Source of the DNA: Alphaproteobacteria bacterium
Lineage (GTDB): Bacteria; Pseudomonadota; Alphaproteobacteria; JABAAW01
Length of the DNA stretch: 64,000 bases
Reading direction: 5' to 3'
NCBI GenBank assembly: GCA_965216605.1
Contig: CBDCGG010000002.1
Span: 1,159,871 to 1,223,870 of the forward strand
In this document: piece by piece, positions 21,183 to 50,420 of the stretch
Layout: each line of letters starts with the position of its first letter
Numbering within the stretch: position 1 is the stretch's first letter
The notes under the pieces: generated by a model
Database searches by the model: none
Told to the model about the DNA's origin: nothing
Seen by the model: only the letters and a program-made list of their open reading frames with translations
Program-made: the position numbers and the translations under genes

Positions 21183-21358
21183 ACTACACCCTCGCAAGCC
21201 AAAGGCTTGCGTATGGGGGGTGTGGGGGGACGAAGTTCCCCCGCAAAAACGCGCCGCGAGCGGGCGCGTTAGCGCCTTCTACGCGCGTAGCGCGTAGCCT
21301 CTTAATACTTAAAAGCGCGTTTCGCAGAAACGCGCAAGCAGCCTTGCGGTTTTACGAT
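21183..21358. repeat. Dispersed modular palindromic repeat, copy R1 (modules B+C, partial)
   Basis: ggggggtgtggggggacgaagttcccccgcaaaa...gcgccttctacgcgcgtagcgcgtagcctctta shared with at least 8 other loci. Confidence 0.75.
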
Positions 21359-21415
21359 GGTAAGAAACTTTGGTTTACATCATCGACTTGGGGAGGGTGG
21401 TGTTTTGCGGTTCTT

Positions 21416-22582
21416 TTGTTGGCAGGGGTTGTAATAATAGCAATTGTTTATCTTTCTTTAATTCCTAAAGATGCCGACACCATTAAGTACTTAGAACTTT
21501 ATGCGGTGATTGTCATTGGACTTATGTCTCTTTATATTGCAGGGTCGAGCTTTTGGGCAAAACAAGGCAGCGCGTTTTTTGTGGAATATCAAACAGCAAA
21601 GGATATGAATGTTGTTGACTTGTTTACATCTTCTAATATATTAGAAGATGCTATTGGCAATCCTGCAAACTCTACCATGCCTTATGTAAAAAGAATCTAC
21701 ATACGCAATGAAAAAAACAAACACGAGGCAATTAAAAGAATTTTATTGCAATTGCCAAACGAACAGACTCTTGTTTTAAAAGAATATAAAAAAGCCGACG
21801 CTCTTCTTATAAAGCCCTATGAAGCCAAGGTATTAAAATTAAATGCGGTAACATTTTATTTTAAGGAATATGACTTGACTCATGTAGGTAGAGGAAACTT
21901 TTTTTTTGATGATAATTTTGTGTATACTATTAAGGATGAAGAAATTCTTCGGAGCGGAAAAATTATTGTCGAAACAGCGCAAGGGCAGTCCTGTATTAAA
22001 AATAATAACAAGCCAATTTCATTTTGCAGCGAAAAGAATTTATTAAAACCAAGTAGATCTTTTTTTGGCATAACTTCCAGCGAACAAGAATTGACTTTTG
22101 GTTTTGATGTTATTTGTTCGCTAGAACTTTTAATGAAAAAAAATTTTGCTGACGATAAAATTTTTAATGACAGCATGCAAAAACAAATTTCTGAATATCC
22201 AAAAATAGCTGAAATGTTTTATAGGAGAGAAGGAGAATTGGCAATTCAAATAGTAATAAATTTATATAATAATATATCCTTATCATACTTTTTCCAAGCC
22301 CACAAAAAAAAATACACCTTACCTGTGCATGCAAATATAAAGAAAGAATTTTATGAGGCGTATAAAAAACATAAATTTTTTCCATTGCCAGCGGTGTTTG
22401 AAAAATCAAAAACCCAAAAAAACCGTATGTCTTTTTTTAATTTTTATTCTTTCTGTGATTCATGGGCAGAAAAAAAATGGGGAAAAAATAAAAGTAAAAT
22501 TTATAATTTTCCACAAGGATATTGCAACCAATTTGCTGTTTGCCAAAAAGAAACAAAAATCATCGACGACTTAAAACCTTAG
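21416..22582 (+). CDS. Hypothetical membrane-anchored protein on low-GC islet (island a); start uncertain
   Basis: About 30% GC over about 1.15 kb against a roughly 62% background. N-terminal TM helix (CFAVLLLAGVVIIAIVYLSLIP) and a second helix, then an about 330-aa K/N/F-rich globular part with no recognisable domain. The six-frame ORF start at 21098 runs through repeat R1 and is rejected; a TTG or internal ATG start is likely. Confidence 0.4.
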   Translation: MLAGVVIIAIVYLSLIPKDADTIKYLELYAVIVIGLMSLYIAGSSFWAKQGSAFFVEYQTAKDMNVVDLFTSSNILEDAIGNPANSTMPYVKRIYIRNEKNKHEAIKRILLQLPNEQTLVLKEYKKADALLIKPYEAKVLKLNAVTFYFKEYDLTHVGRGNFFFDDNFVYTIKDEEILRSGKIIVETAQGQSCIKNNNKPISFCSEKNLLKPSRSFFGITSSEQELTFGFDVICSLELLMKKNFADDKIFNDSMQKQISEYPKIAEMFYRREGELAIQIVINLYNNISLSYFFQAHKKKYTLPVHANIKKEFYEAYKKHKFFPLPAVFEKSKTQKNRMSFFNFYSFCDSWAEKKWGKNKSKIYNFPQGYCNQFAVCQKETKIIDDLKP

Positions 22583-22810
22583 CTCCTCGTCGTGTTGCGA
22601 GTCAGCTTGCGCACGGCAAGCCGTGCGCTTTTGAATAAGAGGCTACGCACTTCGCTTCGCTCGTGCGTAGATAAAGCGCTTACGCGCTCGCTCGCAGCGG
22701 GCTTTTTGCGGGGGGACTGCGTCCCCCCACGCCCCCCATGCGCAAAACTCACTTCGCCCAAAACTCATCTTAAGGCTCGCTCGTCTTGCGTTCTCCCGTC
22801 AATAATAAAA
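22583..22810. repeat. Dispersed modular repeat, copy R2 (inverted orientation; modules C+B)
   Basis: agtcagcttgcgcacggcaagccgtgcgcttttgaataagaggctacgca... ...ggggggactgcgtccccccacgcccccc, the reverse complement of the R1/R3 modules. Confidence 0.75.
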
Positions 22811-22845
22811 CGCCCCTTCTCTGCGTAAAGTGCTACAATCCCCCC

Positions 22846-24054
22846 ATGTCCTCCTCCTCCCAAATATCCCCCGCCGCACAGCACAAGCTCGACACAAGAA
22901 TGATGCACTCCGCAATCTCCCTCGCACGCTCCGCACAAGGCTCAACCTTCCCAAATCCACCCATAGCCTGCATAATCGCCCATTCCGAAACTATCATCGC
23001 CTTCGCAACAACAGCACCCTCAGGAAGACCCCACGCCGAAACTCAAGCCCTGAAAATAGCCGCCGCAGCAGCCAAAGGAGCAACCCTCTACACAACCTTG
23101 GAGCCCTGCACCCACACCAATAAACACAATACTCCCCCCTGCTGCATATCTATCGCCTCCTCAAAAATCTCCCGCGTCTGCTACCCACTACAAGACCCAG
23201 ACCCCCGAACAAACGGAACATGTAAAAAAATACTGGAATCTAACAATATCGAAGTTACAGAAAATCTCTGCACAAAAGAAGCCACTCAACAACTCTTACC
23301 CTATCTGAAACGAACCCAGAAAAATCTCCCCTTCCTAACACTCAAACTCGCCGCATCCATAGACGGAAAAATCTCCGCATCCTCAAATCTATACCCCAAC
23401 AAACAAACCCACATCAGCAGCGACAAAGCACGCATCTACCGAAACTCCCTCCTCAGACAATTCGATGCCATCCTCATCGGAGCGCAAACAATGCGCTCAG
23501 ATAATCCTAAACTCCTGCTCGACGATAACTTCCACACACAACAGAAACATCCCTTCGCGCCCATCAGGATAATCCTCGACGGAGGGCTAACCATCCCCCT
23601 AGAAAGCAAGCTCGTCCAAACCCTCGACCAAGCCCCCCTCTGGATACTCACCCGCGCCTCCGAAGAAGCTAGCGACAAAGGTACAGCCCTCAAAAATAGC
23701 GGCGTCCGACTAATTCCCATACCAGCCCTCTCCAAACAAGGCGGAGGCGTACGACTATCCCTGCCCCACGCCCTCAGCACGCTCGCCCAAGAAGGTATAG
23801 CATCCATACTCTGCGAAGGTGGAGCAAAACTCGCTCACGCACTCCTACATGAAAATTTGCACGAAAATTTAGTAGACCAACTCATCCTCTTCTCCGCTCC
23901 CCACGCGCTAGGCGCACAAGGACGCTCCATGTTTGAAGGTACCGACGCGCAACGCATCAATTTCCAACTAGAAGAATCTATCTCCTTAGGAGACGACGAA
24001 GTGCGCACCTTCCGTATCCAAAAAAATAACTATATAAAAAATAATCATGTTTAG
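22846..24054 (+). CDS. ribD: Bifunctional riboflavin biosynthesis protein RibD (deaminase/reductase)
   Basis: Deaminase motifs HAETQAL and TLEPCTHTNKHNTPPC, then a reductase domain. The coding strand is extremely G-depleted (C/A-rich). Confidence 0.8.
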   Translation: MSSSSQISPAAQHKLDTRMMHSAISLARSAQGSTFPNPPIACIIAHSETIIAFATTAPSGRPHAETQALKIAAAAAKGATLYTTLEPCTHTNKHNTPPCCISIASSKISRVCYPLQDPDPRTNGTCKKILESNNIEVTENLCTKEATQQLLPYLKRTQKNLPFLTLKLAASIDGKISASSNLYPNKQTHISSDKARIYRNSLLRQFDAILIGAQTMRSDNPKLLLDDNFHTQQKHPFAPIRIILDGGLTIPLESKLVQTLDQAPLWILTRASEEASDKGTALKNSGVRLIPIPALSKQGGGVRLSLPHALSTLAQEGIASILCEGGAKLAHALLHENLHENLVDQLILFSAPHALGAQGRSMFEGTDAQRINFQLEESISLGDDEVRTFRIQKNNYIKNNHV

Positions 24055-24697
24055 CGGTATCATAACCCATACAGGAAAAGTCGTAGCACTCAACACAAGC
24101 CGCCCAAAAACCGAGCAGGCAGACTGGCAACTCACCATAGAAACCGACATGGAAGCCTCGCGTTGTGCCATCGGAGCATCGATCGCCTGCAACGGAATCT
24201 GCCTCACCGTCGCACATCACGAATCCTCCGAAAATAACTCGCGCTTCGTAGTACAAGCAGGGACAACAACACGCGAACGCACAACGCTCGGCGAGTGGGA
24301 TGTCGGACGCTCGGTGAACTTGGAGAGCTCGCTCCGCCTCGGCGATCCGCTAGACGGACATCTCGTCACAGGGCATGTCGATGCCTGCGTCAGCGTAGCG
24401 AAGCGTATCGAACGCGAAAACGAAATCGGGTTAGATTTTCTGTTCCCCTCCATTAAAGACGAGTCAGCTCAACACCTACACGCCTGCTGCGCAGTGAGAG
24501 GATCGATCACAATAGACGGCGTGTCGCTGACAATCTCATCTTGCAGCGACAAAGTTTTCTCGGTCGCCGTCATCCCCTACACAGCAGAGCATACAACGCT
24601 AGGCAAACTACGCGTAGGAGAGCGCGTCAATTTGGAGATAGATATTCTCGCGCGCTATGTAGCTCGAAGATTAGAAGTGTTAGGAAAAGTATCATGA
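24047..24697 (+). CDS. ribE: Riboflavin synthase
   Basis: MFSGIITHTGKV N-terminus and duplicated lumazine-binding half-domains. Confidence 0.8.
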   Translation: MFSGIITHTGKVVALNTSRPKTEQADWQLTIETDMEASRCAIGASIACNGICLTVAHHESSENNSRFVVQAGTTTRERTTLGEWDVGRSVNLESSLRLGDPLDGHLVTGHVDACVSVAKRIERENEIGLDFLFPSIKDESAQHLHACCAVRGSITIDGVSLTISSCSDKVFSVAVIPYTAEHTTLGKLRVGERVNLEIDILARYVARRLEVLGKVS

Positions 24698-25224
24698 CAA
24701 AGCGTAACGGTGGTGACAGATTCGGTGGAGAATTAGGTGGAGGCTCTCTTGCTGTGAAGGGGAGGATTGTCGTTCTTCGCGCGCCCTATTATGCAGATGT
24801 AGTAGAGATGTTAAGGACAGGAGTAGAGCGCGCAGCTTCGGCGTATAGCTCTGTTTCTTTAGGTAAGGCAGAGGAGGATATCGTCGTCGGCGGAGCGTTA
24901 GAACTGCCGTTGGCGATGTCGTTGTTTGTGGAGGGATGTGAGGAGGATGCTCGCACCGCGATAAAGAGAGGAGAGTTAGGTTTCGTAGCCTTGGGTTGTA
25001 TAGTTAGAGGGGAGACCGAGCATTTCTCGCTTGTCAGCGAGCAGTGTTATCGAGGGTTGCAGGAGGTTTCGTTGCGTTGTTCTGCTCCTTTGGGGGTTGG
25101 AGTTTTGGCTTGCAATTCGTTGGAGCAGGCTGGGGCAAGGGCGGATATACAGGGAGAGATAGATTGTGGCGGGCAGGCGTTGCGTGCTTGTTGTGGATTG
25201 ATGTCGTTACGGCAGGGTTGTTGA
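24694..25224 (+). CDS. ribH: 6,7-dimethyl-8-ribityllumazine synthase
   Basis: …GRIVVLRAPYYADVVEMLRTG… and …GFVALGCIVRGETEHFSLVSEQ… typical of RibH. Start is ATG at 24694 with an AGGAAAAG RBS. Confidence 0.75.
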   Translation: MTKRNGGDRFGGELGGGSLAVKGRIVVLRAPYYADVVEMLRTGVERAASAYSSVSLGKAEEDIVVGGALELPLAMSLFVEGCEEDARTAIKRGELGFVALGCIVRGETEHFSLVSEQCYRGLQEVSLRCSAPLGVGVLACNSLEQAGARADIQGEIDCGGQALRACCGLMSLRQGC

Positions 25225-25225
25225 G

Positions 25226-25768
25226 ATGTCGAAGGTATCGAAGGCGGAGGCAGAGTTGATGGTACGGCGGGCTACTCGGTTAGCTGCGTTGCAGATATTG
25301 TATGGTCAGCAGTTCAAGGGGGAAACTTTGTATCAGACAGATCCTTATTGGGATGAGGATGAGGGGAGGGATGGAGACAATATTAATAAGTTTGAGAACA
25401 CGCGGAGTGATAGGGTATTTTTGGCGAAGTTGTTATCTTGTGCTAGAACGAATCGGAGAGTTTTGCAGGGGTGGTTATCGGATCGTGTTGTTGGGAGGTC
25501 TTGGGAGAATGTAGATTTGTTGTTGCGGTTGATTATGTGGCTGGGTGTTGCGGAGATGGTATTGGTAAGTATAGACGAGGCTGGCAAAGGAATGGGAACA
25601 GGCAAAGTTAGATTAGGGAGATTAGCGGGAGAGTATTGTGGGATGACTAGTTTATTTTATGATGATGCGGGGGTTATAGGGTTAGTTAATGGTGTGTTGG
25701 ATGGGGCTGCTAAAAGTGATTTGGGGAAGGTCTTGCGGGGGGAGGGTATTGCGAAGGGGGAGGGCTAG
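25226..25768 (+). CDS. nusB: Transcription antitermination factor NusB
   Basis: …ATRLAALQILYGQQFKGE… NusB fold. Conserved ribH-nusB-thiL synteny. Confidence 0.8.
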   Translation: MSKVSKAEAELMVRRATRLAALQILYGQQFKGETLYQTDPYWDEDEGRDGDNINKFENTRSDRVFLAKLLSCARTNRRVLQGWLSDRVVGRSWENVDLLLRLIMWLGVAEMVLVSIDEAGKGMGTGKVRLGRLAGEYCGMTSLFYDDAGVIGLVNGVLDGAAKSDLGKVLRGEGIAKGEG

Positions 25769-25774
25769 TTGTGA

Positions 25775-26045: not shown

Positions 26046-26138
26046 TCTTAACACGGTACAGCGTCTTTAATTTTGCCTAGAAAATAGAGACAAAAAAAAA
26101 TACGCAAGCACACACAAATCTGCTATACTCTCCCCATC

Positions 26139-27140
26139 GTGTCTTTCTCCGAATCTACCCTCATCGCACAATATATCGCTCCACATATATCATCTCCGCT
26201 CGCAAAAAATTTGCTCGACGATACCGCACTCATACCCCCGCCTCCAGCAAACTGCTCCTACGCCGTCTCAACCGACACAATCGTCGAACATATCCATACC
26301 CTCCCCTCAACATCTCCCCAAGCCTACGCACAAAAAATTCTCGCAGCAAACCTCTCCGACCTCGCAGCCCAAGCCGCCAAACCCCTCGCTATACTCCTCT
26401 CCCTCACAATCCCCAAACAAAAAGCCGAACGCTTCATTAAAGAATTCTCCCCAGCCTTCGCATTAGGTTGCAAACAAAACAACCTCCTCTGGCTCGGAGG
26501 AGACCTCACAACAACACCCCACAATATCTGCATCTCCGCTACCATCATCGGAGCATCACAAAAAAATATCGACCCCAAAAGAGCCAACGCCAAAAATAAC
26601 GACATCATCCTCATAACAGGAGAACTCGGCGAAGCAGCACTCGGACTCAAAGTCCTCCAAGAAACAGCCCCGCAACAACGCACCCGCGCTCAACGAAAAG
26701 CAGCCCTTCGCTACAACAACCCCACCGCCCGATGGAAAGAAGCCCTGCTAATCGCTCCCTACGCGAACGCCATGATGGATATCTCCGACGGACTGGTAGC
26801 CGACCTCACAAAACTCTGCTCCGCAGCACAACTCGGAGCAGACCTCTGTCTTCCCTCAATCCCCATCGCGAAAACCCTCATGGAAACACTTCCCGCACAC
26901 CAAGCCCTCGCCATCGCTATCTCTAGCGGCGAAGACTTCGAACTGCTCGTCACTGCCTCCCCCGAAAACTACGAAATCCTGCAAAAAAAATTAGCCAGCA
27001 AAACAGCGACCCAAACATCTCTTTTGTCCCTCACCCGCATCGGAACGCTCAACAACAACAAGGGCAAAATCCGCTACCTCGATGCCTCCCAAAAAGAAAC
27101 ACCTCCCCCCAAACACAAAGGCTACGACCACTTCGCCTGA
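26139..27140 (+). CDS. thiL: Thiamine-monophosphate kinase
   Basis: AIR-synthase-related/ThiL architecture (…DDTALIPPP…, …LWLGGDLTTTP…, …NDIILITGELGEAALG…). Follows nusB. Coding strand is G-depleted. Confidence 0.7.
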   Translation: MSFSESTLIAQYIAPHISSPLAKNLLDDTALIPPPPANCSYAVSTDTIVEHIHTLPSTSPQAYAQKILAANLSDLAAQAAKPLAILLSLTIPKQKAERFIKEFSPAFALGCKQNNLLWLGGDLTTTPHNICISATIIGASQKNIDPKRANAKNNDIILITGELGEAALGLKVLQETAPQQRTRAQRKAALRYNNPTARWKEALLIAPYANAMMDISDGLVADLTKLCSAAQLGADLCLPSIPIAKTLMETLPAHQALAIAISSGEDFELLVTASPENYEILQKKLASKTATQTSLLSLTRIGTLNNNKGKIRYLDASQKETPPPKHKGYDHFA

Positions 27141-27266
27141 ATTATTACACGCTCCCACGCATCCCCCCTTCGCTCTCTTTGCGTTTTGCTTCGCCCCTCT
27201 CGCAAGCCTCCCCTTTCTTGCCTCCCGCTCCCTTTTGCCTCAAGCCCTCTCGGTCGCTCGCCTGTG

Positions 27267-27626
27267 CTATTGTTGTTGCTCGATTTTTTTCATCAAAGCG
27301 CGGTAGCGTCCGCTGAGCACGCGCAACAGAGCAACGACAAAAGGATTGGATTGTTTCAGGCAAGCATCGAAGGTGGGACGATCCATGCTGTCGCACTCGG
27401 TCGGGACGGTCGCAACCGCGTTGGCGGTGCGCGGCGAGCGATCGATCAAAGCCAGCTCTCCGACGATCTGCCGAGGGCCGACATAGGCGATATGTTGCTT
27501 TTTGCCATCTGCCTCGGTGTAGATTTCCAACTGCCCGTTCAAGACCATGTAAGCCTTTTCGGGACTCTTGTCGCCCTGACGAATCAGGATTTCACCGGGT
27601 TTCAAGCTGACGCTCTTTTCTGCCAT
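27267..27626 (-). CDS. Cyclic-nucleotide-binding domain protein
   Basis: 119 aa. …ILIRQGDKSPEKAYMVLNGQLEIYTEADGKKQHIAYVGPRQIVGELALIDRSPRTANAVA… matches the CAP/cNMP-binding beta-barrel. Confidence 0.6.
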   Translation of the reverse strand: MAEKSVSLKPGEILIRQGDKSPEKAYMVLNGQLEIYTEADGKKQHIAYVGPRQIVGELALIDRSPRTANAVATVPTECDSMDRPTFDACLKQSNPFVVALLRVLSGRYRALMKKIEQQQ

Positions 27627-27696: not shown

Positions 27697-29205
27697 TCAA
27701 GCGATTTTGACAGCGACGCTCTTGACGGAGCAATAGTTCGCGAGCCCTTCGAGTCCTTTCTCGCGTCCGAAGCCGGAGAGCCTGTTGCCGCCGAAGGGTA
27801 GTGCCATTCCTCCTGCGAAGTACTCGTTGATCGTTACCTGCCCGACTTGCAGATCACGAGCAAGTCCTAGCGCGCGGTCGATGTTCTGCGTATAGATGCC
27901 GGCGTAAAGCCCGTAGCATGTGTTGTCGGCGAGCGCAAAGGCTTGTTGCGCGTCCTCCGCCACTTGCACAGCCAGCACAGGACCGAATATCTCTTCTTGC
28001 ACGATGGGGTCTTGTGCGTCCAGCTTGTCGAGGATGGTAGGTTCGAAAAACCATCCTTTTTCGGTTTCGGGGTCTAAAGCTGCGTTGCCGCCTGTGCGAG
28101 GAGTGATGCCTCGGCTTTTGGCTTCTTGGATGTAGCGTTCGATCTTGTCGCGTTGCTCGCGCGTTGCGATCGCACCGATGTTGGGGTTGCGCAGCCCGTG
28201 TCCGAGCGAGAGACCTTGCGCGCGCTCGACGAGACGATCGAGAAATTTCTCGTGGATGCTCCTTTCGATGACGAGCCTTGATCCTGCCGAGCAGATCTGT
28301 CCTGCGTGCTCGAAGATGGCATACAGCGTGCCTTCCAGCGCGGCGTCGAAGTTGCAATCTGCCAGCACGATGACGGGAGATTTGCCTCCGAGTTCCATTG
28401 TTGTGTGCGTGACGCTCTCGGCGGCGGCGTGCAGGACTTTCTTGCCTGTTGCGAGCGATCCTGTGAAGGTGATGTGGTCGATGCCTTTGTGTTGAGCGAG
28501 TCTTGCTCCTGCGCCTTCGCCTGTGCCGACGACGACATTGCAAACGCCTTCGGGCAATCCTGCGCGAGTGAGCAGGTGTGCCAGCATGAGTGCGGTGAGG
28601 GAGGTTTGTTCTGCGGGTTTGCAGACGACGCAGCATCCAGCGGCGAGCGCGGGAGCGACACCTCGCAGCAGGGTTACTAATGGATAGTTCCACGGCGTGA
28701 TGTGGAGCGAGACGCCCACGGGTTCCAGCAGTGTGAAGCCGAGGTAGTTTTTGCCGAGCGGCATGGTATTGCCGAACACTTTGTCGGCGGCACTTGCGTA
28801 AAAGCGTAGCGTTGCGATGGAGGAGGCGATGTCGCCTTGTGCTTGCGCGAGGGTTTTACCTGCGTCGAGGCATTCGACGACGGCGAAGCGCGCTGCTTCT
28901 TGTTCGAGCAGGTTGGCGGCTTGGAAGAGGGTCTTGGCGCGCTCGGTGGGGGTGCTTTGTCCCCAGCCTTCTTGCGAGTTGTTGCGGAAGGCGTTGCGTG
29001 CGGCGGAGATGGCTTGTTCGACTTCTTCTTCGCCTGCGGAGCAGATTTCTGCGAAGGCTTCGCCGCGTCCGGGGTCGAAGACGGGGATGGTGTCGTTGTT
29101 GTGTGCGGAGGTGCTTTTACCTGCGATGTGGCTTTGGGTGGGGAGGTTTGCTATGCGCCCTGTGGAGCGGGCTTCTTCGATGTAGTCTTTGAGGGGGGTG
29201 GGCAT
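27697..29205 (-). CDS. NAD(P)-dependent aldehyde dehydrogenase
   Basis: ALDH catalytic motifs (…MELGGKSP…, …FEHAGQICSAGSRL…). 502 aa. Confidence 0.85.
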   Translation of the reverse strand: MPTPLKDYIEEARSTGRIANLPTQSHIAGKSTSAHNNDTIPVFDPGRGEAFAEICSAGEEEVEQAISAARNAFRNNSQEGWGQSTPTERAKTLFQAANLLEQEAARFAVVECLDAGKTLAQAQGDIASSIATLRFYASAADKVFGNTMPLGKNYLGFTLLEPVGVSLHITPWNYPLVTLLRGVAPALAAGCCVVCKPAEQTSLTALMLAHLLTRAGLPEGVCNVVVGTGEGAGARLAQHKGIDHITFTGSLATGKKVLHAAAESVTHTTMELGGKSPVIVLADCNFDAALEGTLYAIFEHAGQICSAGSRLVIERSIHEKFLDRLVERAQGLSLGHGLRNPNIGAIATREQRDKIERYIQEAKSRGITPRTGGNAALDPETEKGWFFEPTILDKLDAQDPIVQEEIFGPVLAVQVAEDAQQAFALADNTCYGLYAGIYTQNIDRALGLARDLQVGQVTINEYFAGGMALPFGGNRLSGFGREKGLEGLANYCSVKSVAVKIA

Positions 29206-29280
29206 GGGGGTTCCTCTTGGGGTGGGGTGAGGGGGGGTGTGGAGGCTTTTCTTTTAGCACAGAGAAGGGGGAGGAGTCTA

Positions 29281-29730: not shown

Positions 29731-32121
29731 CTATTTGTTTCCGCTTTTAAGAATAGCATCATAGAAAGTCTTGTCATGGTATTTTATCATTTTAAAAATT
29801 ATCTTTAAATTTTTCTGTAAATGCAAAAAACTTTCTGATGTTTTGGAGTGGCTGTCAGGATGAATGCGATCATTTAAATTCAGCACAATTGTTTCTACAG
29901 AAAATATTTCTGGATTTTTTTTCCAAAGACTACTTAAACTATTTACAAGAGATTTACCTTCTGCTTTCCAAATGTTCACATACATTTCTAGGAATGTCCT
30001 GACCATGTTGGGAGCGCTAATGCATTCGTCTTCGTTTATTACTTCAGCTTCCATAATGTCATGAAGTTTTTTAAACAAATAAGGAAACAAGGCAGAGCTA
30101 TTTTCTATTACCTTTGGCATTTTAATAAGTTTAGTTTTTAAGTTTACATCTTTTTCAAGCATATACAAAGAACATCCGTATTTTTTTGAGTCTTTGTTTA
30201 TTGGAGGTTGTTTAACCCAATAAATAACTCTTTCGAGAAAGTTTAAATCGTGTGTTAAGATAAAAACTTGCCTTGCTGAAGAAATTTTTTTTCTCATAGT
30301 AATAAACATACCATAAAAATTAATAGTATCAAGGCTGGACACAGGATCGTCGATAATAATTCTTGTGTTAGGAATTATAAATTTATTGCCTTGTTCGTCT
30401 GTTCTTTCAAGTGAAAAAAGAAAATACAAAAATACAATTACATTAATTTCCCCTTCACTTAAAGAATCCACACTGGCTTTTTTCTTATTTCTAAATATTT
30501 CATAGCCAGAAATTTTGCCGCCAGCTGCTTTCAGCTGCAACACGTTGTATCCGAAAAAATTATTTAATTCAGTATTAATTTTATTTGAAAATTCTAATAT
30601 ATTATACATTTTTTTTTCATTTTCAACAATACAACTTTCCATTTTTTCCATGGCAACATCAATTGTCTTCAATGGGCTGGTTTCCGAAAAATTATCTTCG
30701 CAAAGAAAGTTTATTTCTTCTATGTTTATACGATTTTTATAAAAATCTTTCATTCCCTCAGCGATTTTATGAGAAATTAGTTTTTTTCCTGCAATATTCA
30801 TTTTTTGTTCAATTTTAAGCTGGTTGTCATTGAATATTAAAATCATTCTATTGATTTTTTCTAATATTTCTTTCAGATACGTTTTGCTTTTATTTAATGT
30901 TTCAATAATAATAGGCGCGACATTTTTCTTTATGTATATTTGATTTTTCTTTGATTGTATTTTTTCTTTAAGATTGTCGATAGCATTCAAATAACCACTT
31001 ATTTTTTCTGAAAAATCAAGCTGAATTTTTTCTATTTCTACTTTTTGCCCTGAATCAAAAAAAGTAAAGTTATCTATATGAATTTTATAATGCGTAATTT
31101 TTTCTTTTTGCTGCTCAAGGCATGTAGAGTCATTTTCTAATTTTTGTATCAAAGCATTTGTGTCTGGATTGAAATGTTTTTTTAATTTATCAATTAATTG
31201 GGATGATATTGTATTTTCGCAAAATTCACATTTCTCTTTTTTGTCAGCGTGAATTTCCAATCCTAATTTTACCCAATTAGATACTGTGCCTTCCATATCC
31301 ATTACCCTTTTGTCGACTTCGCCTTCAGGTATAGAAGACAAGTGTTCTGCCATTTCGTCGTAGTTAATTTCTTCTGGATAGTAAATTTTATACATAGGGT
31401 TTTCTGATTTTCTGTCGATATCTTGCTCAAAATTAATATATTGTGTGTTGTCTAATATTTCGTTTTCTATTTTATCTTTAAAGCTATTTAAATCTCTATT
31501 CACTTTAGATTTTTCATAATTTGCAACATCAAGATTTTTTCCGTATTGCGTGCCTCTGAAAAATGTTTTAATGTTGACGGCTATGTTTTTCATGCACTCT
31601 TCGTAAATATATATTCGGATTTGCTTTAATTTTGCAATTTTTACTTTCAAGCTTCTATTAGCATCTAATAATTTTATTTGTGGCTCTCCTAGCATAATTT
31701 TTTTTATATTCTTCTCCTGAAGATTTTCTGGAAAAAAATTATCTTTAACATACTCTCTATCAAATAAAGCGATATGCTCATCTTCCGTTTCGTTTTTGTC
31801 GATTTCAAATTCAACTGAAAGTCCCATGTCTTTGTAATAATTTTCTTGCTCGTCATTTTTGTAAGAAAGCAAGCGTGAAAAAATTGTTTTTCCAACCCCG
31901 TTTAATCCAAAAATCACGTTGCGGTCTGAAAAATCAAAATTTTTACATGCGTTTTCGTTCCAAGAGAAGTCCCTAAAAACCCATTCAGTATCAGGAGCAC
32001 TACTGTATTTGCTGATAACTCCTTCATCGAGAGTAATTTTTTTTATCTTCCTCAACATTTTCTTTCTCCTCGCAAAGCGTTTTGCTTTCTTAGAAATAGC
32101 ACAAGTTTTTTCTCCTGTCAA
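29731..32121 (-). CDS. RloC-like anticodon nuclease / AAA_13-type ABC ATPase with Zn-hook coiled coil (low-GC island b)
   Basis: 796 aa at about 30% GC. Walker A NVIFGLNGVGKT near the N-terminus, a long coiled-coil insertion with CxxC (KEKCEFCENT) zinc-hook, Walker B/D-loop IIIDDPVSSLD, H-loop ILTHD, then an about 150-aa C-terminal domain (PrrC/RloC-like ACNase region). Confidence 0.6.
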   Translation of the reverse strand: MTGEKTCAISKKAKRFARRKKMLRKIKKITLDEGVISKYSSAPDTEWVFRDFSWNENACKNFDFSDRNVIFGLNGVGKTIFSRLLSYKNDEQENYYKDMGLSVEFEIDKNETEDEHIALFDREYVKDNFFPENLQEKNIKKIMLGEPQIKLLDANRSLKVKIAKLKQIRIYIYEECMKNIAVNIKTFFRGTQYGKNLDVANYEKSKVNRDLNSFKDKIENEILDNTQYINFEQDIDRKSENPMYKIYYPEEINYDEMAEHLSSIPEGEVDKRVMDMEGTVSNWVKLGLEIHADKKEKCEFCENTISSQLIDKLKKHFNPDTNALIQKLENDSTCLEQQKEKITHYKIHIDNFTFFDSGQKVEIEKIQLDFSEKISGYLNAIDNLKEKIQSKKNQIYIKKNVAPIIIETLNKSKTYLKEILEKINRMILIFNDNQLKIEQKMNIAGKKLISHKIAEGMKDFYKNRINIEEINFLCEDNFSETSPLKTIDVAMEKMESCIVENEKKMYNILEFSNKINTELNNFFGYNVLQLKAAGGKISGYEIFRNKKKASVDSLSEGEINVIVFLYFLFSLERTDEQGNKFIIPNTRIIIDDPVSSLDTINFYGMFITMRKKISSARQVFILTHDLNFLERVIYWVKQPPINKDSKKYGCSLYMLEKDVNLKTKLIKMPKVIENSSALFPYLFKKLHDIMEAEVINEDECISAPNMVRTFLEMYVNIWKAEGKSLVNSLSSLWKKNPEIFSVETIVLNLNDRIHPDSHSKTSESFLHLQKNLKIIFKMIKYHDKTFYDAILKSGNK

Positions 32122-41807: not shown

Positions 41808-42158
41808 CTATTTGCTGATGAAGACTTCTGCGGCGAAAATCATGGTAGGTCCCCAAAATGCCATGAACGCCACCCCCATATAAAACATTCGCTGAAAATT
41901 GCGTGTCTCAGTACGCATCTCCTTCATCTCCGCACGCATCTCCATGCGTAGCTCCCTGATCTCTGCGCGTAGCTCCTTGATGTCAGACTTGGTCGCAACC
42001 CCATCCAACAAGACATCTTGCAAAACCCTCACATGCGCACGAGCTTGCCTATCGCTTACACCCCCCTTGCGTAAAGTGTCCGCATGCTTCTGCGTATCTA
42101 AAAGTGCCATTTTCCTTTTCTCCCTTCTCCTTACAGCATTCCCCCATCGAGTTTCCAT
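41808..42158 (-). CDS. Small coiled-coil protein with C-terminal TM helix (DUF1640-like)
   Basis: …KSDIKELRAEIRELRMEMRAEMKEMRTETRN… then a hydrophobic tail. Native GC. Start may be the internal Met (MALLDTQ). Confidence 0.35.
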   Translation of the reverse strand: METRWGNAVRRREKRKMALLDTQKHADTLRKGGVSDRQARAHVRVLQDVLLDGVATKSDIKELRAEIRELRMEMRAEMKEMRTETRNFQRMFYMGVAFMAFWGPTMIFAAEVFISK

Positions 42159-42281
42159 CCTCCCTCACAAACACGAGAGAGTCAAGACAAATTCTCCATC
42201 TTTTTATTTTTGTTGTCTTTTTTATCTTCCCATCCCGCGAATCCGTTGCAATTCTCTCACTTCGCGTCTAGGGTTGGCTTT

Positions 42282-43091
42282 ATGTTGTTGCGTCTCTTCC
42301 GCTTCTTTCTTTTTCTTCTTCTGCCCGTCGGGGTCGTGGGGAGATCTCTGTTGCGCTTCCTAGAGACGCTCGGCAGAGTTACCGCCTTCGGAGCCCTCTC
42401 GCTCTCGCATCTCTTCCGCCCCCCGCTCTACTTCGAGCAAATCCGCAAACAACTGATAGAAACAGGATACTACTCGCTGCCCGTCGTCGCCCTCACGGTC
42501 ACCTTCTCAGGGATGGTGCTCGTCCTCCAATCCTACGCGGGCTTCCAAAACGCCTTCGCAAGCCAAGCCATTCCCGAACTCGTCGTGCTAGCTATCACAC
42601 GAGAACTCGCCCCCGTCCTCAGCGGACTCATGGTCGCAGGTAGAGTGGGCGGCGCCATGGCAGCCGAAATCGCAACTATGCGCGTCAGCGAACAAATCGA
42701 CGCCCTAGAAACCCTCTCCGCCAATCCCTATAAGTATCTGATCGTTCCCCGATTGCTAGCAGGCGCGCTCTGCCTGCCGTTGCTCGTGGTGATCGGAGAC
42801 TCGCTGGGAATTTTGGGCGGTACCCTGATCGCCGTCTATAAACTGGGCTTCAATGCCGATCTCTATCTGCAATACACGCGCGCCGCCTTCGACCTCATCG
42901 GCTTCCTCTCCGGCGTGTGTAAAGCCTTCGTCTTCGGATTGCTCATCGCGCTCCTTAGCTGCTACAACGGATTCCACGCAACCGGCGGAGCGCAAGGCGT
43001 AGGACGAGCAACCACAAATGCCGTCGTTAGCTCCTCGATAGCTATCCTAGTCTTCAACTATTTCCTGACCGAACTCTTCTTCGCTCGATAG
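42282..43091 (+). CDS. mlaE: Phospholipid ABC transporter permease MlaE
   Basis: MlaE/Ttg2B-family permease (…ETGYYSLPVVALTVTFSGMVLVLQSY…). Start at MLLRL. Confidence 0.75.
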   Translation: MLLRLFRFFLFLLLPVGVVGRSLLRFLETLGRVTAFGALSLSHLFRPPLYFEQIRKQLIETGYYSLPVVALTVTFSGMVLVLQSYAGFQNAFASQAIPELVVLAITRELAPVLSGLMVAGRVGGAMAAEIATMRVSEQIDALETLSANPYKYLIVPRLLAGALCLPLLVVIGDSLGILGGTLIAVYKLGFNADLYLQYTRAAFDLIGFLSGVCKAFVFGLLIALLSCYNGFHATGGAQGVGRATTNAVVSSSIAILVFNYFLTELFFAR

Positions 43092-46300: not shown

Positions 46301-47977
46301 ATGGACTCGCAGGAGGCGGCAGACAGCGATGTGTTGCGCGAGGCTTGCGGCATCTTCGGCATTATCGGCAGCTTTGATGCCGCAGAGCAGACGGCGTTGG
46401 GCTTGCATGCTTTGCAGCATCGCGGTCAGGACGGTTGCGGCATCGTTTCGTACGACGGGCGTTACTTTCGGGCGGAGCGCGCCTTGGGGCTGGTCGGCGA
46501 CAGCTTGGCGAAGCGCGAGAAGATCGAGCGTCTGCATGGCGTGCTGGCATTGGGGCATAATCGCTATGCGACCAGCGGCGTTGCCAAGGATTTAACGAAT
46601 GTACAGCCTATGTTTGCCGAGTTGGATATTGGCGGCGTGGCTTTGGCGCACAACGGCAACTTCACGAATGGATTGAGCTTGCGTAAAAAGTTGGTGGCGG
46701 AGGGGAGTATTTTTCAGTCGCACTCCGATTCAGAGGTGTTGATACATTTGCTGGCGCGTGCGCGCGGCTCTCTGACAGAGAGGTTGCTGTCGGCGTTGGG
46801 CGAGTTGCGCGGGGGGTTTGCCATCGCCTTGCTTGCCAAGGATATGCTGATAGGCTTGCGCGATCCGCATGGCTTGCGTCCGTTGCTGTTGGGCAGTACG
46901 CGCGACGGCGGCGTGATCGTTACATCCGAATCGTGCGCGTTGGACATCATCGATGCCGAGTATCGACGCGAGATCGCACCAGGCGAGATTGTGGTCTTCT
47001 CGTTGCGGCGCTCGCGTGGGCTTGTCGAGGCGCGCTCGTTCTTTGGCGATAGGAGAGGGCAGGCTAAAAAAGACGACAACTCAAAAAACAAGAACGAGCA
47101 GGGCAAGGAGAAGAAAAAGCTGTTTTGCGCTTCCAAGCGTTTCGCTGCTCCTGTTGCTCGTCGTTCGTGCGTCTTCGAGCATATCTATTTTTCGCGTCCC
47201 GATTCACTCGTCGCCTCAAGTCCGCCGAACGGCGCGGAGAAGGGTAATGGTAGAGGGCAAGGTAGAGGTCGAGATAATGGCAATGGCAAGGAGAAGGAGG
47301 AGGTGTTGAAACGCTCGATCTATCAGGTGCGCAAGCGTCTAGGTGCGGTGTTGGCGGAGGAGGCGGTAGGATCGTTGCCTGCTTGCGACTGCGTCGTTCC
47401 TATTCCTGATTCGGGCGTTGCCGCGGCACTGGGCTTTGCTGAGGGGTTGGGGCTGCCCATAGATTTTGCAATCATCCGCAACCACTATGTAGGACGCACC
47501 TTCATCGAGCCTCAACAGGAGATCCGTCATTTCGGCGTGCGCTTGAAGCACAACGCGGACAAGGCGTTGTTGCGCGGCAAGCGCGTTGTGTTGATTGACG
47601 ATTCGTTGGTAAGGGGGACCACTTCTCGCAAGATCATTGCATTGGTGAGACAAGCGGGAGCGTTGGAGGTTCATATGCGTATTGCGTCTCCTCCGATAAC
47701 GCATCCGTGCCACTACGGGGTAGATACGCCTGAGCGAGACGAGTTGTTGGCGGCTCGATTGTCGGCAAAGCAGATGGCTAAGCATATCGGTTGCGACTCG
47801 TTGGCGTTTCTTTCGGCGGGAGGATTGTATCGGGCTTTGGAGGGGTGCGAGGGCGGAGATGCAGAGGGCGGGGGGTGGTGTAGTGCTTGCTTTACGGGGG
47901 TGTATCCTGTTGAGTTGATCGACGAGGAGTTTGGCAAGGCTGCTTATGGACAATTGAGTTTGTTGGCGAGGGAGTGA
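46301..47977 (+). CDS. purF: Amidophosphoribosyltransferase PurF (with short propeptide and low-complexity insertions)
   Basis: Nucleophile Cys in ...REACGIFGIIGS after a 15-aa leader. PRTase motif VVLIDDSLVRGTTS. Inserts GQAKKDDNSKNKNEQGKEKKK and GNGRGQGRGRDNGNGKEKEE. The six-frame ORF from 45857 is over-extended. Confidence 0.85.
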   Translation: MDSQEAADSDVLREACGIFGIIGSFDAAEQTALGLHALQHRGQDGCGIVSYDGRYFRAERALGLVGDSLAKREKIERLHGVLALGHNRYATSGVAKDLTNVQPMFAELDIGGVALAHNGNFTNGLSLRKKLVAEGSIFQSHSDSEVLIHLLARARGSLTERLLSALGELRGGFAIALLAKDMLIGLRDPHGLRPLLLGSTRDGGVIVTSESCALDIIDAEYRREIAPGEIVVFSLRRSRGLVEARSFFGDRRGQAKKDDNSKNKNEQGKEKKKLFCASKRFAAPVARRSCVFEHIYFSRPDSLVASSPPNGAEKGNGRGQGRGRDNGNGKEKEEVLKRSIYQVRKRLGAVLAEEAVGSLPACDCVVPIPDSGVAAALGFAEGLGLPIDFAIIRNHYVGRTFIEPQQEIRHFGVRLKHNADKALLRGKRVVLIDDSLVRGTTSRKIIALVRQAGALEVHMRIASPPITHPCHYGVDTPERDELLAARLSAKQMAKHIGCDSLAFLSAGGLYRALEGCEGGDAEGGGWCSACFTGVYPVELIDEEFGKAAYGQLSLLARE

Positions 47978-47984
47978 TTCTTTT

Positions 47985-48791
47985 GTGAAAGAGTCGAAGG
48001 AGTTGAAAGAGTTGAAGGAGTTGAAGGGGTTGGAGGGCTTGCGATTGTTGTTGACGGGTGCTTCGAGGGGTTTGGGCAGGGCATTGGCGATGAGCTTTGC
48101 AGAGCGAGGGGTGAGGCTGATCTTAACGGGGCGCACGCAGGGGGGGCTGGCAGAGGTATCGAAGGAGATTGTAGAAAGGGGGTTTCCTGCTCCTGTGGTT
48201 GTTGCCTTGGATTTACGAGAGGGGACAGAGAAAGGCGCAGAGGGAGGCTCTGATACGGGGACGGGAGGAGGGAGTAGAATAGAGTTATTGGGGGGAATGA
48301 TTGCGGAGCGGATCGGGGGATTGGAGGGAATTATTTTGAATGCGGCGTTATTGGGGGAGTTATCTCCTGTTGCGCATGGGGATGGGGATATGTGGAGGGA
48401 GGTATTTGATGTGAATGTGTTTGCTAATCGGAAATTAATAGAGAGTGTGCATGGATTGTTGTGTATGTCGGGGGGTTTTGTTATTGGGGTTACTTGTGGG
48501 GAGAAGCGGGGTGGAGCTTATTGGGGATGTTATGGGGCTTCTAAGGCGGCGATGGAGGTTATGTTGGAGAGTTATGGGAGGGAGTGTGAGAAGTTAGGTA
48601 TAAGTGTTGCGTGTTGGGATCCGGGGAGGATGTCTACGGGGTTGCGGGGTAGTGCGTATCCGGGTGAATCTGTGGGCAAGGAGGGGGAGAATAATAATGG
48701 GAAGTATCCGATAACGGGGGAGACTGGTAGGGGCTGTGTAGAGATTGTGGAGGAGTGGGTTAGACGGAGGCGGGAGGGGGGAGGTAGTTAG
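47985..48791 (+). CDS. Short-chain dehydrogenase/reductase (SDR) family oxidoreductase
   Basis: TGASRGLGRA cofactor motif and catalytic YGASKAA. Coding strand C-depleted. Confidence 0.7.
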   Translation: MKESKELKELKELKGLEGLRLLLTGASRGLGRALAMSFAERGVRLILTGRTQGGLAEVSKEIVERGFPAPVVVALDLREGTEKGAEGGSDTGTGGGSRIELLGGMIAERIGGLEGIILNAALLGELSPVAHGDGDMWREVFDVNVFANRKLIESVHGLLCMSGGFVIGVTCGEKRGGAYWGCYGASKAAMEVMLESYGRECEKLGISVACWDPGRMSTGLRGSAYPGESVGKEGENNNGKYPITGETGRGCVEIVEEWVRRRREGGGS

Positions 48792-48843
48792 TTGCTTGTG
48801 CTTTTGCGTTTTTTGAGAGGGGGGTAGTTTATGTTTGTTTGCC

Positions 48844-50112
48844 TTACTCCTCATTCGCTTTTTTAATAGCGGCTACAATAGCAATTTTGGTCGCGTGAAC
48901 CCATTCGTGTCTATTGTCAAAGTTGGCATGAATATATTTTTCAATTTCTCTATATTTTTTTGTTTTGAGGGAATATTCTAACTTATACGCTCGATCGGGA
49001 TCGGATGTTTGATAGGAATTCAGTCGTTGTGTTACATCTCTTGCAATGCCAACTTTATAAATATCAGGAAAAGCAGGATTCGATATAATGTAGATATAAC
49101 CTGAATCTCTATCGACGGTGGTAGTATCGGTTGGCTTTGGCGGATCAGTAAGAAAATTAGGCTCTTTTCTAAAAATATCGGTAGGAACTTCTTTATCTAA
49201 TCGCGCCCTTATAAAATCAAACGCTTTCGCTCCTACATCTATGCCTATCCATTCTCGCCCTAATTTCTCGGCTGCCACACAAGTTGTAGCGCAGCCACAA
49301 AACGGATCCAACACCATGTCCCCCTCGTTGCTACTTGTTTTTATAATGCGTTCCATTAACGCAAGCGGTTTTTGAGTTCGGTAACCTGTTTTTTCGTCGG
49401 CTATGCCTTGAATAAATGGAATTTTAAAAACATTGTCTGATTTTCCTTCTTTAAGATACGCTTTACGAACTACCCCGTTCTTATCATGGTATGTTTTAAA
49501 TTTTTGACCCTCCTCGTCTGTCTTGTTGTAGCGTTTAACAGACTTCTCATCATACTTAAAAAAAGTTTCTTTATAGTTAAAGATGTATTTATCTCCTTTC
49601 GTATAGAAAAAAATGTTGTCATAATTTTTAGGGTAATTGACCTTTCCTCCATGTGGCTTGAAATAATGCCAGATAATTTCATTTTTAAACGATTTTTCTC
49701 CAAAAGCTATATCCAATATAATCTTAAGATAATGGCTCATTGTTTGATCGCAATGCAGATACAAACTTCCAGTATCTTTTAATACTCGATGGCATTCAAT
49801 AAGTCGTATAGCCATATAAATTAAATAACAGTAATTCATTTCACTGCTAAACTGCTTTACTTCGCAAAGGTATTGAAAAAGCTTAGGGTTTTCAAATTCG
49901 ATGAATTTCACCCATTCATCCTTAATATCTTCTTTTCTAAATATATCCTTAAACCCAGCTCCCTGAGCACTGCTTTCAATTGGCGAGACATATTCTTCGT
50001 TGGTGTTAAACGGCGGGTCAAGATAAATAAGGTCGATGCAATCTGAATTGATACCCTCAAGAATATCAAGGTTATCCCTGCAGAAAATTGTACGAGACTT
50101 TACATTAAGCAT
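48844..50112 (-). CDS. Orphan beta-class N6-adenine DNA methyltransferase fused to C-terminal T5orf172/GIY-YIG-like domain (low-GC island d)
   Basis: Motif IV IDLIYLDPPFN precedes motif I VLDPFCGCATTCVAAEKLGREWIGID (beta-class order). C-terminal SGYIYIISNPAFPDIYKVGIARDVTQRLNSYQTSDP...NRHEWVHA is a T5orf172 motif. About 32% GC. No restriction-enzyme neighbour. Confidence 0.7.
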   Translation of the reverse strand: MLNVKSRTIFCRDNLDILEGINSDCIDLIYLDPPFNTNEEYVSPIESSAQGAGFKDIFRKEDIKDEWVKFIEFENPKLFQYLCEVKQFSSEMNYCYLIYMAIRLIECHRVLKDTGSLYLHCDQTMSHYLKIILDIAFGEKSFKNEIIWHYFKPHGGKVNYPKNYDNIFFYTKGDKYIFNYKETFFKYDEKSVKRYNKTDEEGQKFKTYHDKNGVVRKAYLKEGKSDNVFKIPFIQGIADEKTGYRTQKPLALMERIIKTSSNEGDMVLDPFCGCATTCVAAEKLGREWIGIDVGAKAFDFIRARLDKEVPTDIFRKEPNFLTDPPKPTDTTTVDRDSGYIYIISNPAFPDIYKVGIARDVTQRLNSYQTSDPDRAYKLEYSLKTKKYREIEKYIHANFDNRHEWVHATKIAIVAAIKKANEE

Positions 50113-50224
50113 GAGTTGAAGCCCAAATAAAATACGACCAATAACTAATTCACGCCAAAAGTAGACTTTTCTAGCGGTTTGTCAATAAAAAAATACGCTT
50201 TTATACAATTTTGCTAGAAATCAG

Positions 50225-50420
50225 CACCGTCAAGCAAACAGCCCTCTCGTACCCCCCACCCCCCCCGCGCACGCCATAGCGCGTTGCTTGCAACGCGCGT
50301 ACATGATGTTGCTAGCGTGCGCATGTTTTGCATCCGTCATAATACAAAGCCCGTCTGTTGCGTGAGCGCGTGCCTTTAAAAAGCACAAGCGCGAGCGCAA
50401 CAGACAAGACAAGGCCAGAC
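50225..50420. repeat. Dispersed modular repeat, copy R7 (inverted orientation; modules B-like+A)
   Basis: ccccccaccccccccgcgcacgccatagcgcg...atgttttgcatccgtcataatacaaagcccgtctgttgcgtgagcgcgtgcctttaaaaagcacaagcgcgagcgcaacagac is the reverse complement of module A. Confidence 0.75.

Follow-up and report, generated by a model that had tools for sequence, protein, structure and literature searches.

Small defence cassettes turn over beside polar composite repeats in inter-operon spacers of an uncultured alphaproteobacterial lineage

Introduction

Many of the cassettes carried by the minimal mobile elements of Neisseria are restriction-modification systems. In a minimal mobile element, different whole-gene cassettes lie between the same two conserved genes and are incorporated by homologous recombination (PMC3082526; for Neisseria, Saunders and Snyder 2002 and Snyder et al. 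2007, as cited there), and many hotspots of horizontal transfer have no mobile-element genes and show raised recombination in their flanking core genes (PMC5635113). Here we analyse a 64,000-nucleotide stretch (the window) of contig CBDCGG010000002.1, assembly GCA_965216605.1, from an uncultured alphaproteobacterium, in which four low-GC islets (a to d) lie beside copies of a dispersed composite repeat. We propose, with moderate confidence, that the islets are horizontally acquired one- or two-gene cassettes, mostly anti-phage, that occupy fixed spacers between operons and are exchanged by homologous recombination.

Like the Neisseria elements, this system has conserved gene pairs that frame alternative whole-gene cassettes with no mobility machinery of their own (the exception among the relatives being one IS1595 transposase, at site b of locus L004), and a cassette distribution that disagrees with strain relatedness. 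It differs in that every variable spacer has a polar, multi-module composite with the cassette at one end, in that repeat and cassette are often gained or lost together, and in that the flanking core genes show an extreme bidirectional skew at third codon positions; additionally, natural transformation is not known for this lineage. As for recombination in the flanks, the replacement of whole spacers and the incongruent cargo fit a minimal mobile element, whereas no clear imported tracts are seen there. Core defence hotspots and other integrase-free hotspots share with this system their fixed positions between core genes, their variable defence systems and, in many cases, a lack of mobile-element genes, with turnover thought to proceed through recombination in flanking core genes (PMC10250203; PMC5635113). 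Here, in contrast to a few large islands, the slots are many, tiny (one or two genes) and 3-10 kb apart, and each carries the same repeat family.

Gene content varies at repeat-bearing spacers

Orthologous stretches were taken from six other assemblies, with ~99% to ~77% nucleotide identity to the window, and a seventh locus, with no overall identity figure, was compared as well (Table 1). Throughout the compared assemblies gene order is conserved, every difference in gene content falls at a repeat spacer, and the same gene pairs flank each site in every genome where that site was seen (glyA/ribD, nusB/thiL, aldH/MR_MLE, alr/CCDC90-like, SDR/thioesterase and bactofilin/ligA). Gene content varies at 8 of 9 repeat-bearing junctions and at 0 of ~29 others (Fisher p = 1.8e-7). 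The closest strain, ctg49101, whose ~99% identity was measured over window 34.5-63.3 kb, differs in gene content at three places in 28.8 kb, all of them repeat spacers (p = 0.008). The six or seven other window spacers longer than 100 bp have no repeats and do not vary in the relatives.

A previous interpretation of the window, made without database searches (the sequence-only reading), had noticed that all four islets adjoin a repeat copy. Is this adjacency beyond chance? Taken from the window alone it is only suggestive: among 15 spacers longer than 100 bp, 8 or 9 of which have repeats, four of four gives p = 0.051-0.092, a marginal value because about half of the large spacers carry a repeat, whereas against all ~55 gene junctions p = 2e-4. 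It is the comparative data that make the adjacency significant.

Both empty and alternatively filled sites were found. The nusB/thiL spacer is empty, that is, repeat-only, in the window and in OZ244186 and holds a type II restriction-modification pair in L004; the HIBDH/BCCT and BCCT/dnaB spacers are empty in the window and occupied in relatives; and sites c and d each have four alleles. The cassette distribution is incongruent with core-gene relatedness, as T5orf172+Sel1 is common to the window and OZ244186 (~89% identical), and HNH_2 to the ~99% strain and a ~80% relative. Run on the islets and the other cargo, PADLOC recognised most of it, and most low-GC cargo is identified as restriction-modification or candidate defence genes. 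In the window, the T5orf172 protein of islet c matches PDC-S57 (6e-68) and the methyltransferase (MTase) of islet d matches MTase_II (3e-62); in the relatives, the matches are REase_II (5e-86), MTase_II (9e-97), a type III MTase (1e-178), HEC-05 (9e-135) and HNH (8e-30). Islet a, the RTX proteins, BCCT, a ParA-like gene and several orphan proteins are without a defence-family match, and PHROGs added nothing for the orphan cargo proteins.

The hotspot interpretation is thus supported, and it extends to about ten slots in seven genomes. The sequence-only reading had also taken the repeats for entry points of defence cassettes, and comparison bears this out to the extent that they mark an integrase-free hotspot of mostly defence genes; as a description of simple, pre-existing landing pads it does not hold, for the reasons given below.

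Cargo is polar to the repeat and often moves with it

Wherever repeat orientation is readable, at eight independent sites, the cargo lies at the head, or G-module, end of the composite (p = 0.004). Islet a, BCCT, the RTX fragment of L005 and the GmrSD gene of L011 are bracketed by two heads that point inwards. Most cargo genes read at their 3' end into the G hairpin, which in that position resembles a terminator of the gene; the 3' end of islet b, for example, faces the G module of repeat C4, and the G hairpin of C2, followed by TTTT, comes directly after the stop codon of islet a.

The junctions themselves are less uniform. There is no fixed crossover point, since both the module at the junction and its distance vary between sites: cargo begins directly after GCTGACTCGC in L005, after ...AACGC at site c and after an H-like AGAGA at site b, and at site a of OZ244186 it abuts module D, with F and G missing. 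A search for target-site signatures, which the sequence-only reading had suggested as a check, came up empty, and no target-site duplication is present at the junctions that were read. At site c the window and the ~99% strain carry unrelated cassettes behind an identical G module that the two alleles share, and the first cassette base falls at the same position in both; both alleles end at the ribosome-binding region of the cargo; a common junction base is to be expected from recombination within conserved slot borders.

Repeat and cargo co-vary. At the HIBDH/BCCT and bactofilin/ligA spacers a full composite is found where the site is occupied and only a vestige where it is empty, and at bactofilin/ligA the whole spacer has been replaced, with breakpoints at both stop codons (the allele of the ~99% strain is 1.54 kb long and comprises a low-GC ParA-like gene and a full composite). 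OZ244186 has RTX paralogues, 73-94% identical, at two repeat spacers, and their nucleotide homology of ~91-92% extends from the composite on the upstream side to the one on the downstream side, so that the cassette has been copied between slots along with its repeats. Transfer and loss, in other words, often involve repeat and cargo jointly, and the repeat is therefore not simply a landing pad that was there beforehand. OZ244186 also has tandem units of cargo and composite (BCCT-composite-RTX-composite), and in L005 G-H units form tandem arrays beside cargo. In ctg46878 (L016 1168-4441) the MR_MLE-HIBDH pair has the reverse of its orientation in the window and lies between composites, and the sign of the skew described below travels with the block, which suggests recombination between inverted composites.

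A mosaic of palindromic modules

The sequence-only reading treated the repeat as a single unit. It is instead a polar mosaic of at least eight palindromic modules in the order A-B-(K)-C-D-F-G-(H-G), with A as the tail and G/H as the head. Self-comparison gives nine clusters (C1 to C9), all extragenic and all between 21 and 54 kb of the window, and a vestige lies in the bactofilin/ligA spacer. Islet a is flanked by the C1 copy (21207-21340) on one side and by an inverted one (22573-22813) on the other; islet b starts 11-19 bp past a repeat ending at 29719/29730; islet c starts 4-12 bp past the repeat end at 40117. The distance from islet d to its repeat, previously put at about 110 bp, is longer, ~130 bp to the degenerate G-run part and 199 bp to the well-conserved part. 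Repeat spacers without an islet in the window are nusB/thiL, HIBDH/BCCT, BCCT/dnaB and rpsF/mnmA.

The G module is a perfect, GC-rich hairpin stem of 9 bp. Among 20 distinct copies, pairing holds in 99.4% of cells and compensatory changes are present in 5 of the 9 pairs, values that none of 500 shuffles reached; the hairpin is under selection. Read on the strand from the head side, the GC-rich stem of G is followed by TTTTGAAT, and read from the tail side the F hairpin is followed by CCTCTTATTC, so that F and G form face-to-face elements resembling intrinsic terminators. As single-stranded DNA the full composite (C7) forms a chain of hairpins, its folding being much stronger than that of shuffled sequence (z = -7.7).

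How does this repeat relate to described ones? With the repetitive extragenic palindromic (REP) family, including BIME and REPIN elements (PMC1525189; PMC3116915), it shares short, GC-rich extragenic palindromes arranged in mosaics (here nine clusters in 64 kb) and compensatory stem changes, and REP sequences are known landing sites for certain insertion sequences (PMC1525189; PMC3116915). The differences are that at least eight different units occur here in fixed order and orientation over 200-500 bp, and that the associated DNA consists of gene cassettes without a transposase rather than of insertion sequences. Rfam matched no repeat, nor anything else in the window. The conserved 19-mer of the G module has no match in IMG/VR and four one-off chance matches in JGI metagenomes; the family appears to be specific to this lineage, and the repeat is not a phage att site.

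Just downstream of several spacers, ribD, thiL, dnaB and MR_MLE have, by eye, a CTAnAnT-type, -10-like motif 6-9 nt before the start codon (window 22820-22848, 26120-26141 and 36800-36829; L003 18130-18162). The motif suggests leaderless transcripts that may start at the edge of the slot.

The islets and their alternative alleles

The description of the islets as low-GC DNA beside repeats is borne out by GC content (26-40% against ~55%) and by self-comparison, and so is their lack of an integrase and a tRNA target: domain search finds no integrase or transposase domain in any islet protein of the window, and there is no tRNA gene in the whole window. The repeats that flank the islets belong to the dispersed composite, with inverted copies at islet a, and are not att duplications. 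With no integrase, no tRNA target and no att duplications, the islets do not match a classical genomic island. An assembly artefact is ruled out, islets c and d recurring at the same sites in independent long-read assemblies. Possible sources of the cargo were sought with tblastn among plasmids and phages, where the matches were distant ones only: at most 25% identity for islet b, no match for islet a and, for islet d, at most 38% over the methyltransferase part only.

Islet a encodes a protein with two hydrophobic N-terminal stretches (by eye) and no match in Pfam, NCBIfam, PADLOC or PHROGs; only 13 homologues were found among 1.84 billion representative proteins. Its open reading frame is open from 21098 and runs through repeat C1. 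Two close homologues (P0364 and P0365), 50-55% identical over the whole frame, share the repeat-encoded, Arg/Lys-rich N-terminal stretch of ~100 residues, and one has the identical junction between repeat and cargo. Repeat C1 may supply the start and N-terminus of this gene; alternatively, the frame may simply be open there and gene prediction may have extended across it.

Several alleles of the relatives deserve mention beyond Table 1. At site a, OZ244186 has an MTase-HNH cassette; its methyltransferase is 50% identical to that of islet d and carries an HNH domain in place of T5orf172. At nusB/thiL the same genome has two composites head to head with nothing between them (L003 9438-9927), which looks like an empty two-armed slot. 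The low-GC genes found at HIBDH/BCCT in OZ244186 and ctg49101 (occupied alleles L001 1516-3343 and L014 1-1068) are 62-65% identical to each other. The BCCT transporter gene is itself cargo, because it is absent from ctg27657 (L015) and ctg359083 (L017).

Large RTX (HemolysinCabind) proteins of native GC content are recurrent cargo of the repeat slots, with two paralogues in one genome and fragments or giant versions in others.

A proposed exchange of spacer alleles by homologous recombination

How would the cassettes be exchanged? In the reading that we favour, whole spacer alleles, repeat and cassette together, would be replaced by homologous recombination, for which homology could come from two sources. 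The first would be the flanking core genes, as in the minimal mobile elements of Neisseria. The second would be the repeat modules, which are present at many spacers and could allow a cassette to be duplicated at a further spacer or a block to be inverted. The terminator modules would insulate the neighbouring housekeeping operons, which would explain why cassettes persist only in repeat spacers. Site-restricted turnover, polarity, the co-variation of repeat and cargo and duplication from repeat to repeat are observed; the mechanism of recombination, the terminator or insulator function and the route of DNA entry are what we infer. Breakpoints are found at the ends of flanking core genes (bactofilin/ligA) and at the end of the shared G module (site c).

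Several points weigh against this reading. In the ~99% strain, the flanks of swapped alleles show no clear rise in divergence and remain ~99% identical when gaps are excluded. Recombination in the flanks explains how a cassette spreads within the lineage and not how foreign DNA of 27-37% GC first entered the spacers. Additionally, in islet d, the restriction-modification pair of L004 and the L011 gene it is the 5' end that lies towards the repeat; a model of allele exchange does not account for the extreme strand skew that surrounds each repeat spacer; and the sampling amounts to seven genomes and ~50 kb of each.

An imported tract in alr was considered and rejected, as the apparent peaks of single-nucleotide polymorphisms are mostly indels: over window 38149-39611 against L014 4978-6075, several indel blocks lie in the G-rich 3' half beside the repeat, and substitutions stay at ~1%. 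The 3' end of ligA has 17 differences in 500 nt, a modest excess that is suggestive only.

Strand skew around the spacers and the question of breaks

The core genes that flank the repeat spacers carry a strong strand asymmetry. To the left of every repeat spacer third-codon GC skew lies between +0.6 and +0.86, and to the right between -0.6 and -0.78; its sign is independent of gene strand, and that of AT skew is reversed. Over 1 kb the mean skew drops from 0.54 to ~0.23. On the strand whose 3' end points towards the spacer, runs of at least four G outnumber those of C by 204 to 11, compared with 33 to 32 in the type III secretion cluster at the left of the window. Flips of the skew occur in the window at repeat spacers only, and the pattern recurs in all relatives. 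In cargo genes, BCCT included, third-codon skew is near zero, which implies that the cargo is younger than the process that produces the skew or exempt from it. We regard these skew arms as a finding separate from cassette turnover. To our knowledge, a third-codon GC skew of up to 0.86 that switches sign at a repeat is the strongest local strand asymmetry on record.

The skew invites another explanation of the exchange, one that is possible but, to our minds, doubtful: the hairpin arrays would be broken repeatedly, whether by SbcCD acting on extruded hairpins or by a dedicated or cassette-encoded nuclease of HNH or GIY-YIG type, repair would capture or exchange cassettes, and repeated 5'-to-3' resection would expose 3' tails to cytosine deamination, giving rise to the skew arms. 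The bidirectional skew at every repeat spacer, with its decay over 1 kb, its confinement to repeat spacers and its recurrence in all relatives, speaks for it, as do the dense hairpins into which the composites fold and the HNH or T5orf172 domains of several cassettes. The strand with its 3' end towards the spacer is rich in G and T, as C-to-T loss would give, and the direction of the skew is what would be expected from cytosine loss on 3' tails after bidirectional resection; it matches equally the orientation expected for Chi-like signals. Against repeated breakage, there is no direct sign of a break and junction positions are not fixed. Islet c, although shared since the window and OZ244186 split, still has third-codon skew near zero beside the supposed break; recent substitutions, polarised with an outgroup, are few, show no clear strand bias and have counts that fit equilibrium; and most nuclease domains of the cargo are ordinary parts of restriction systems. 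That the repeats are cut, as the sequence-only reading allowed, is unproven, being read from the skew pattern alone. The fuller proposal, in which the composites are programmed or fragile break sites that serve a dispersed, integrase-independent exchange of cassettes and cycles of breakage, resection and repair wrote the skew, strikes us as unlikely.

Other explanations

Might repeats and islets simply accumulate, independently of each other, in spacers where they do no harm, the repeats having no role in exchange? The window-only association is marginal (p = 0.05-0.09), repeats also occur in spacers without cargo (C3, C6 and C9), and REP-like elements, like islands, as a rule lie outside genes (PMC1525189). 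We nevertheless find such shared permissiveness quite improbable, given that the large spacers without repeats do not vary in the relatives, that cargo keeps to one constant side of a polar repeat, that repeat and cargo were gained or lost together at two sites, that the duplicated RTX segment spans repeat to repeat, and that the junction between repeat and cargo is preserved in homologues of islet a at 45-50% divergence.

Systems with a site-specific recombinase offer further points of comparison. As in integrons and integrase-free attC clusters, the cassettes here are small, usually of one gene, and have a hairpin repeat, often at the 3' end of the gene, and tandem cassette-repeat units exist; in contrast to integron cassettes, they are dispersed over many spacers, their repeat lacks attC features and their junctions do not fall at a fixed base. 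The window and the ~200 kb of related loci showed neither an IntI integrase nor an attI site. Inspection led us to reject the reading of the G module as an attC site, its perfect 9-bp stem having no complementary core sites at its flanks. The dif modules of Acinetobacter plasmids (PMC6449649) are likewise discrete accessory modules without a recombinase of their own, bounded by short repeats and shuffled; the cassettes described here differ in being chromosomal, in having long mosaic repeats and in having no XerC/XerD-type site that we could find. No dif-like site with up to 3 mismatches to the dif consensus is present in the window, although the dif sequence of this lineage might depart from the consensus. 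We consider an integron-like or Xer-like system unlikely.

It is very improbable indeed that the islets form a dispersed cassette system with a recombinase encoded elsewhere, a module such as the G hairpin as its site and cargo plus one repeat as its unit: the tandem units of OZ244186, the two different site c cassettes that start at the same base after the G module, the G-H arrays beside cargo in L005 and the precedent of host-recombinase-site modules in Acinetobacter (PMC6449649) would suit it, but the G hairpin has a perfect stem with no extrahelical bases and, by eye, no RYYYAAC/GTTRRRY core pair, no dif-like site was found in the window, no recombinase gene apart from the one IS1595 transposase lies in the ~200 kb examined, and junction positions differ among sites.

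The lineage and the rest of the window

The window is a chromosomal segment with a background of ~55% GC. Its first part (1-18260) is a type III secretion cluster (SctJ, SctL, SctN ATPase, SctC secretin, SseC-like translocon and a TPR chaperone-like protein) without composite repeats or skew switches, and it is followed by housekeeping genes, namely glyA, ribD-ribE-ribH-nusB, thiL, aldH, dnaB-alr, mlaE/F and purF as well as rplI-rpsR-rpsF, mnmA, gatCAB and ligA. An exact look-up of the 433-aa glyA open reading frame returned no record, probably owing to a wrongly placed start codon. The closest named genome, OZ244186.1 ("MAG: Alphaproteobacteria bacterium"), is circular and 1.9 Mb long, with DNA ~89% identical to the window. 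The lineage is isolated: its proteins have matches of 66-96% identity in only a handful of ENA metagenome contigs, and the next-best matches outside it are far lower (ThiL 48%, then 37%; Alr 41%). These are uncultured alphaproteobacteria with a small genome of 1.6-1.9 Mb and a type III secretion system, a combination that suggests a host-associated lifestyle.

Within the secretion cluster, the adjacent genes at 6025-6693 and 6748-7509 are paralogous (DNA 80-88% identical) and have no family match; they may be duplicated effector or translocon-associated genes. At 12166-12878 the same cluster has 713 bp without an open reading frame of at least 90 aa on the gene map. Two further contigs, L012 and L013 (ERZ26869290), were used for gene order only; they carry mnmA twice, inverted, around a short core, and are probably palindromic assembly artefacts.

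Table 1. Islets, repeats, variable sites and skew arms of the window, and the related loci compared with it. Positions are those of the window unless a locus is named.
Feature	Position	Strand	Content
Islet a	21346-22582 (low-GC part from about 21400)	+	one gene, orphan family, 27-34% GC
Islet b	29731-32121	-	AAA_13 ATPase, PADLOC PDC-S06 (4e-87, full length), 26-32% GC
Islet c	40122-41775	-	Sel1-repeat protein (40122-40865) and T5orf172 protein (40795-41775), 35-37% GC
Islet d	48844-50112	-	N6_N4 DNA methyltransferase fused to T5orf172 domain, 32-40% GC
Repeat C1	21183-21345 (core 21207-21340)	+	partial: C, D, F, G variant; head right, towards islet a
Repeat C2	22573-22815	-	G, C, K; inverted relative to C1; head left, towards islet a
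Repeat C3	25779-26099	+	A-B-C-D-F-G-H; nusB/thiL spacer; no islet in window
Repeat C4	29280-29730	+	A-K-C-D-F-G-H-G; head right, towards islet b
Repeat C5	34445-34492	+	vestigial, first hairpin only; HIBDH/BCCT spacer; no islet in window
Repeat C6	36453-36741	-	G-G-B-A; BCCT/dnaB spacer; head left
Repeat C7	39633-40117	+	A-B-D-F-G-H-G; head right, towards islet c
Repeat C8	50240-50422	-	degenerate G-run (50240-50310), then B, A (conserved part 50311-50422); head left, towards islet d
Repeat C9	53168-53378	+	K-K-D; divergent rpsF/mnmA spacer; no cargo in any genome seen
BCCT transporter gene	34704-36365	-	inward-pointing repeats on both sides; no third-codon skew
Site a, glyA/ribD			orphan protein, or MTase-HNH
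Site nusB/thiL (C3)			empty in window and OZ244186; type II restriction-modification pair in L004 (MTase 9e-97, restriction endonuclease (REase) 5e-86)
Site b, aldH/MR_MLE			PDC-S06 in window; RTX in OZ244186; IS1595, REase-like and type III MTase in L004; RTX-related proteins in ctg27657; giant RTX proteins in ctg359083
Site HIBDH/BCCT (C5)			vestigial repeat only, or full composite and low-GC gene (OZ244186, ctg49101)
Site BCCT/dnaB (C6)			empty, or RTX and second composite (OZ244186)
Site c, alr/CCDC90-like			T5orf172+Sel1 (window, OZ244186); HNH_2 (~99% strain); 305-aa orphan; 201-aa orphan
Site d, SDR/thioesterase			MTase-T5orf172 (window); RTX fragments (L005); HEC-05/GmrSD, 9e-135 (L011); P63C protein (L017)
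Site bactofilin/ligA	60345-60509		vestige in window; ParA-like gene and full composite; ParA-like gene alone
RTX cargo of relatives	L003 13915-17664, L001 5953-9435 (OZ244186.1); L005 337-1864; L015 5739-7124; L017 1-4969		large RTX proteins
Skew arms	19700-21100, 22800-24200, 24500-25770, 26140-27400, 27900-29280, 32200-33100, 33300-34440, 36800-38000, 38300-39630, 41800-42900, 47400-48800, 50430-51700, 52300-53160, 53450-54100, 59300-60345, 60510-61800		
OZ244186.1	loci L001, L003		~89% nucleotide identity to window
ctg49101	loci L006, L014		~99% nucleotide identity to window
ctg47805	locus L005		~87-90% nucleotide identity to window
ctg46878	locus L016		~83-91% nucleotide identity to window
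ctg27657	loci L011, L015		~80% nucleotide identity to window
ctg359083	locus L017		~77-80% nucleotide identity to window
ctg22666 (seventh)	locus L004		72-80% identity over core genes, no overall figure; ThiL 77% identical

Concluding remarks

We would class this system with the minimal mobile elements, as a set of hotspots that lack an integrase; what sets it apart is its polar composite, the joint movement of repeat and cargo, and its skew arms. How bacteria without obvious mobile elements exchange their defence genes is an open question, and this lineage is an unusually clean case, with about ten tiny slots within 45 kb that carry the same polar repeat and hold one of several cassettes or none. 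The co-variation of repeat and cargo, together with copying from repeat to repeat, points to dispersed repeats as portable homology. If the composites were in fact programmed or fragile break sites, every spacer with a repeat would act as an insulated slot from which interchangeable defence genes are expressed, and if the skew arms record recurrent breaks, they would be an evolutionary footprint of the sites at which recombination initiates in a bacterium; we know of no such footprint that has been described. Additionally, the positions of the slots can be predicted from the repeat, and several of the cassettes are orphans. For those looking for new single-gene defence candidates, these slots are ready to be mined.

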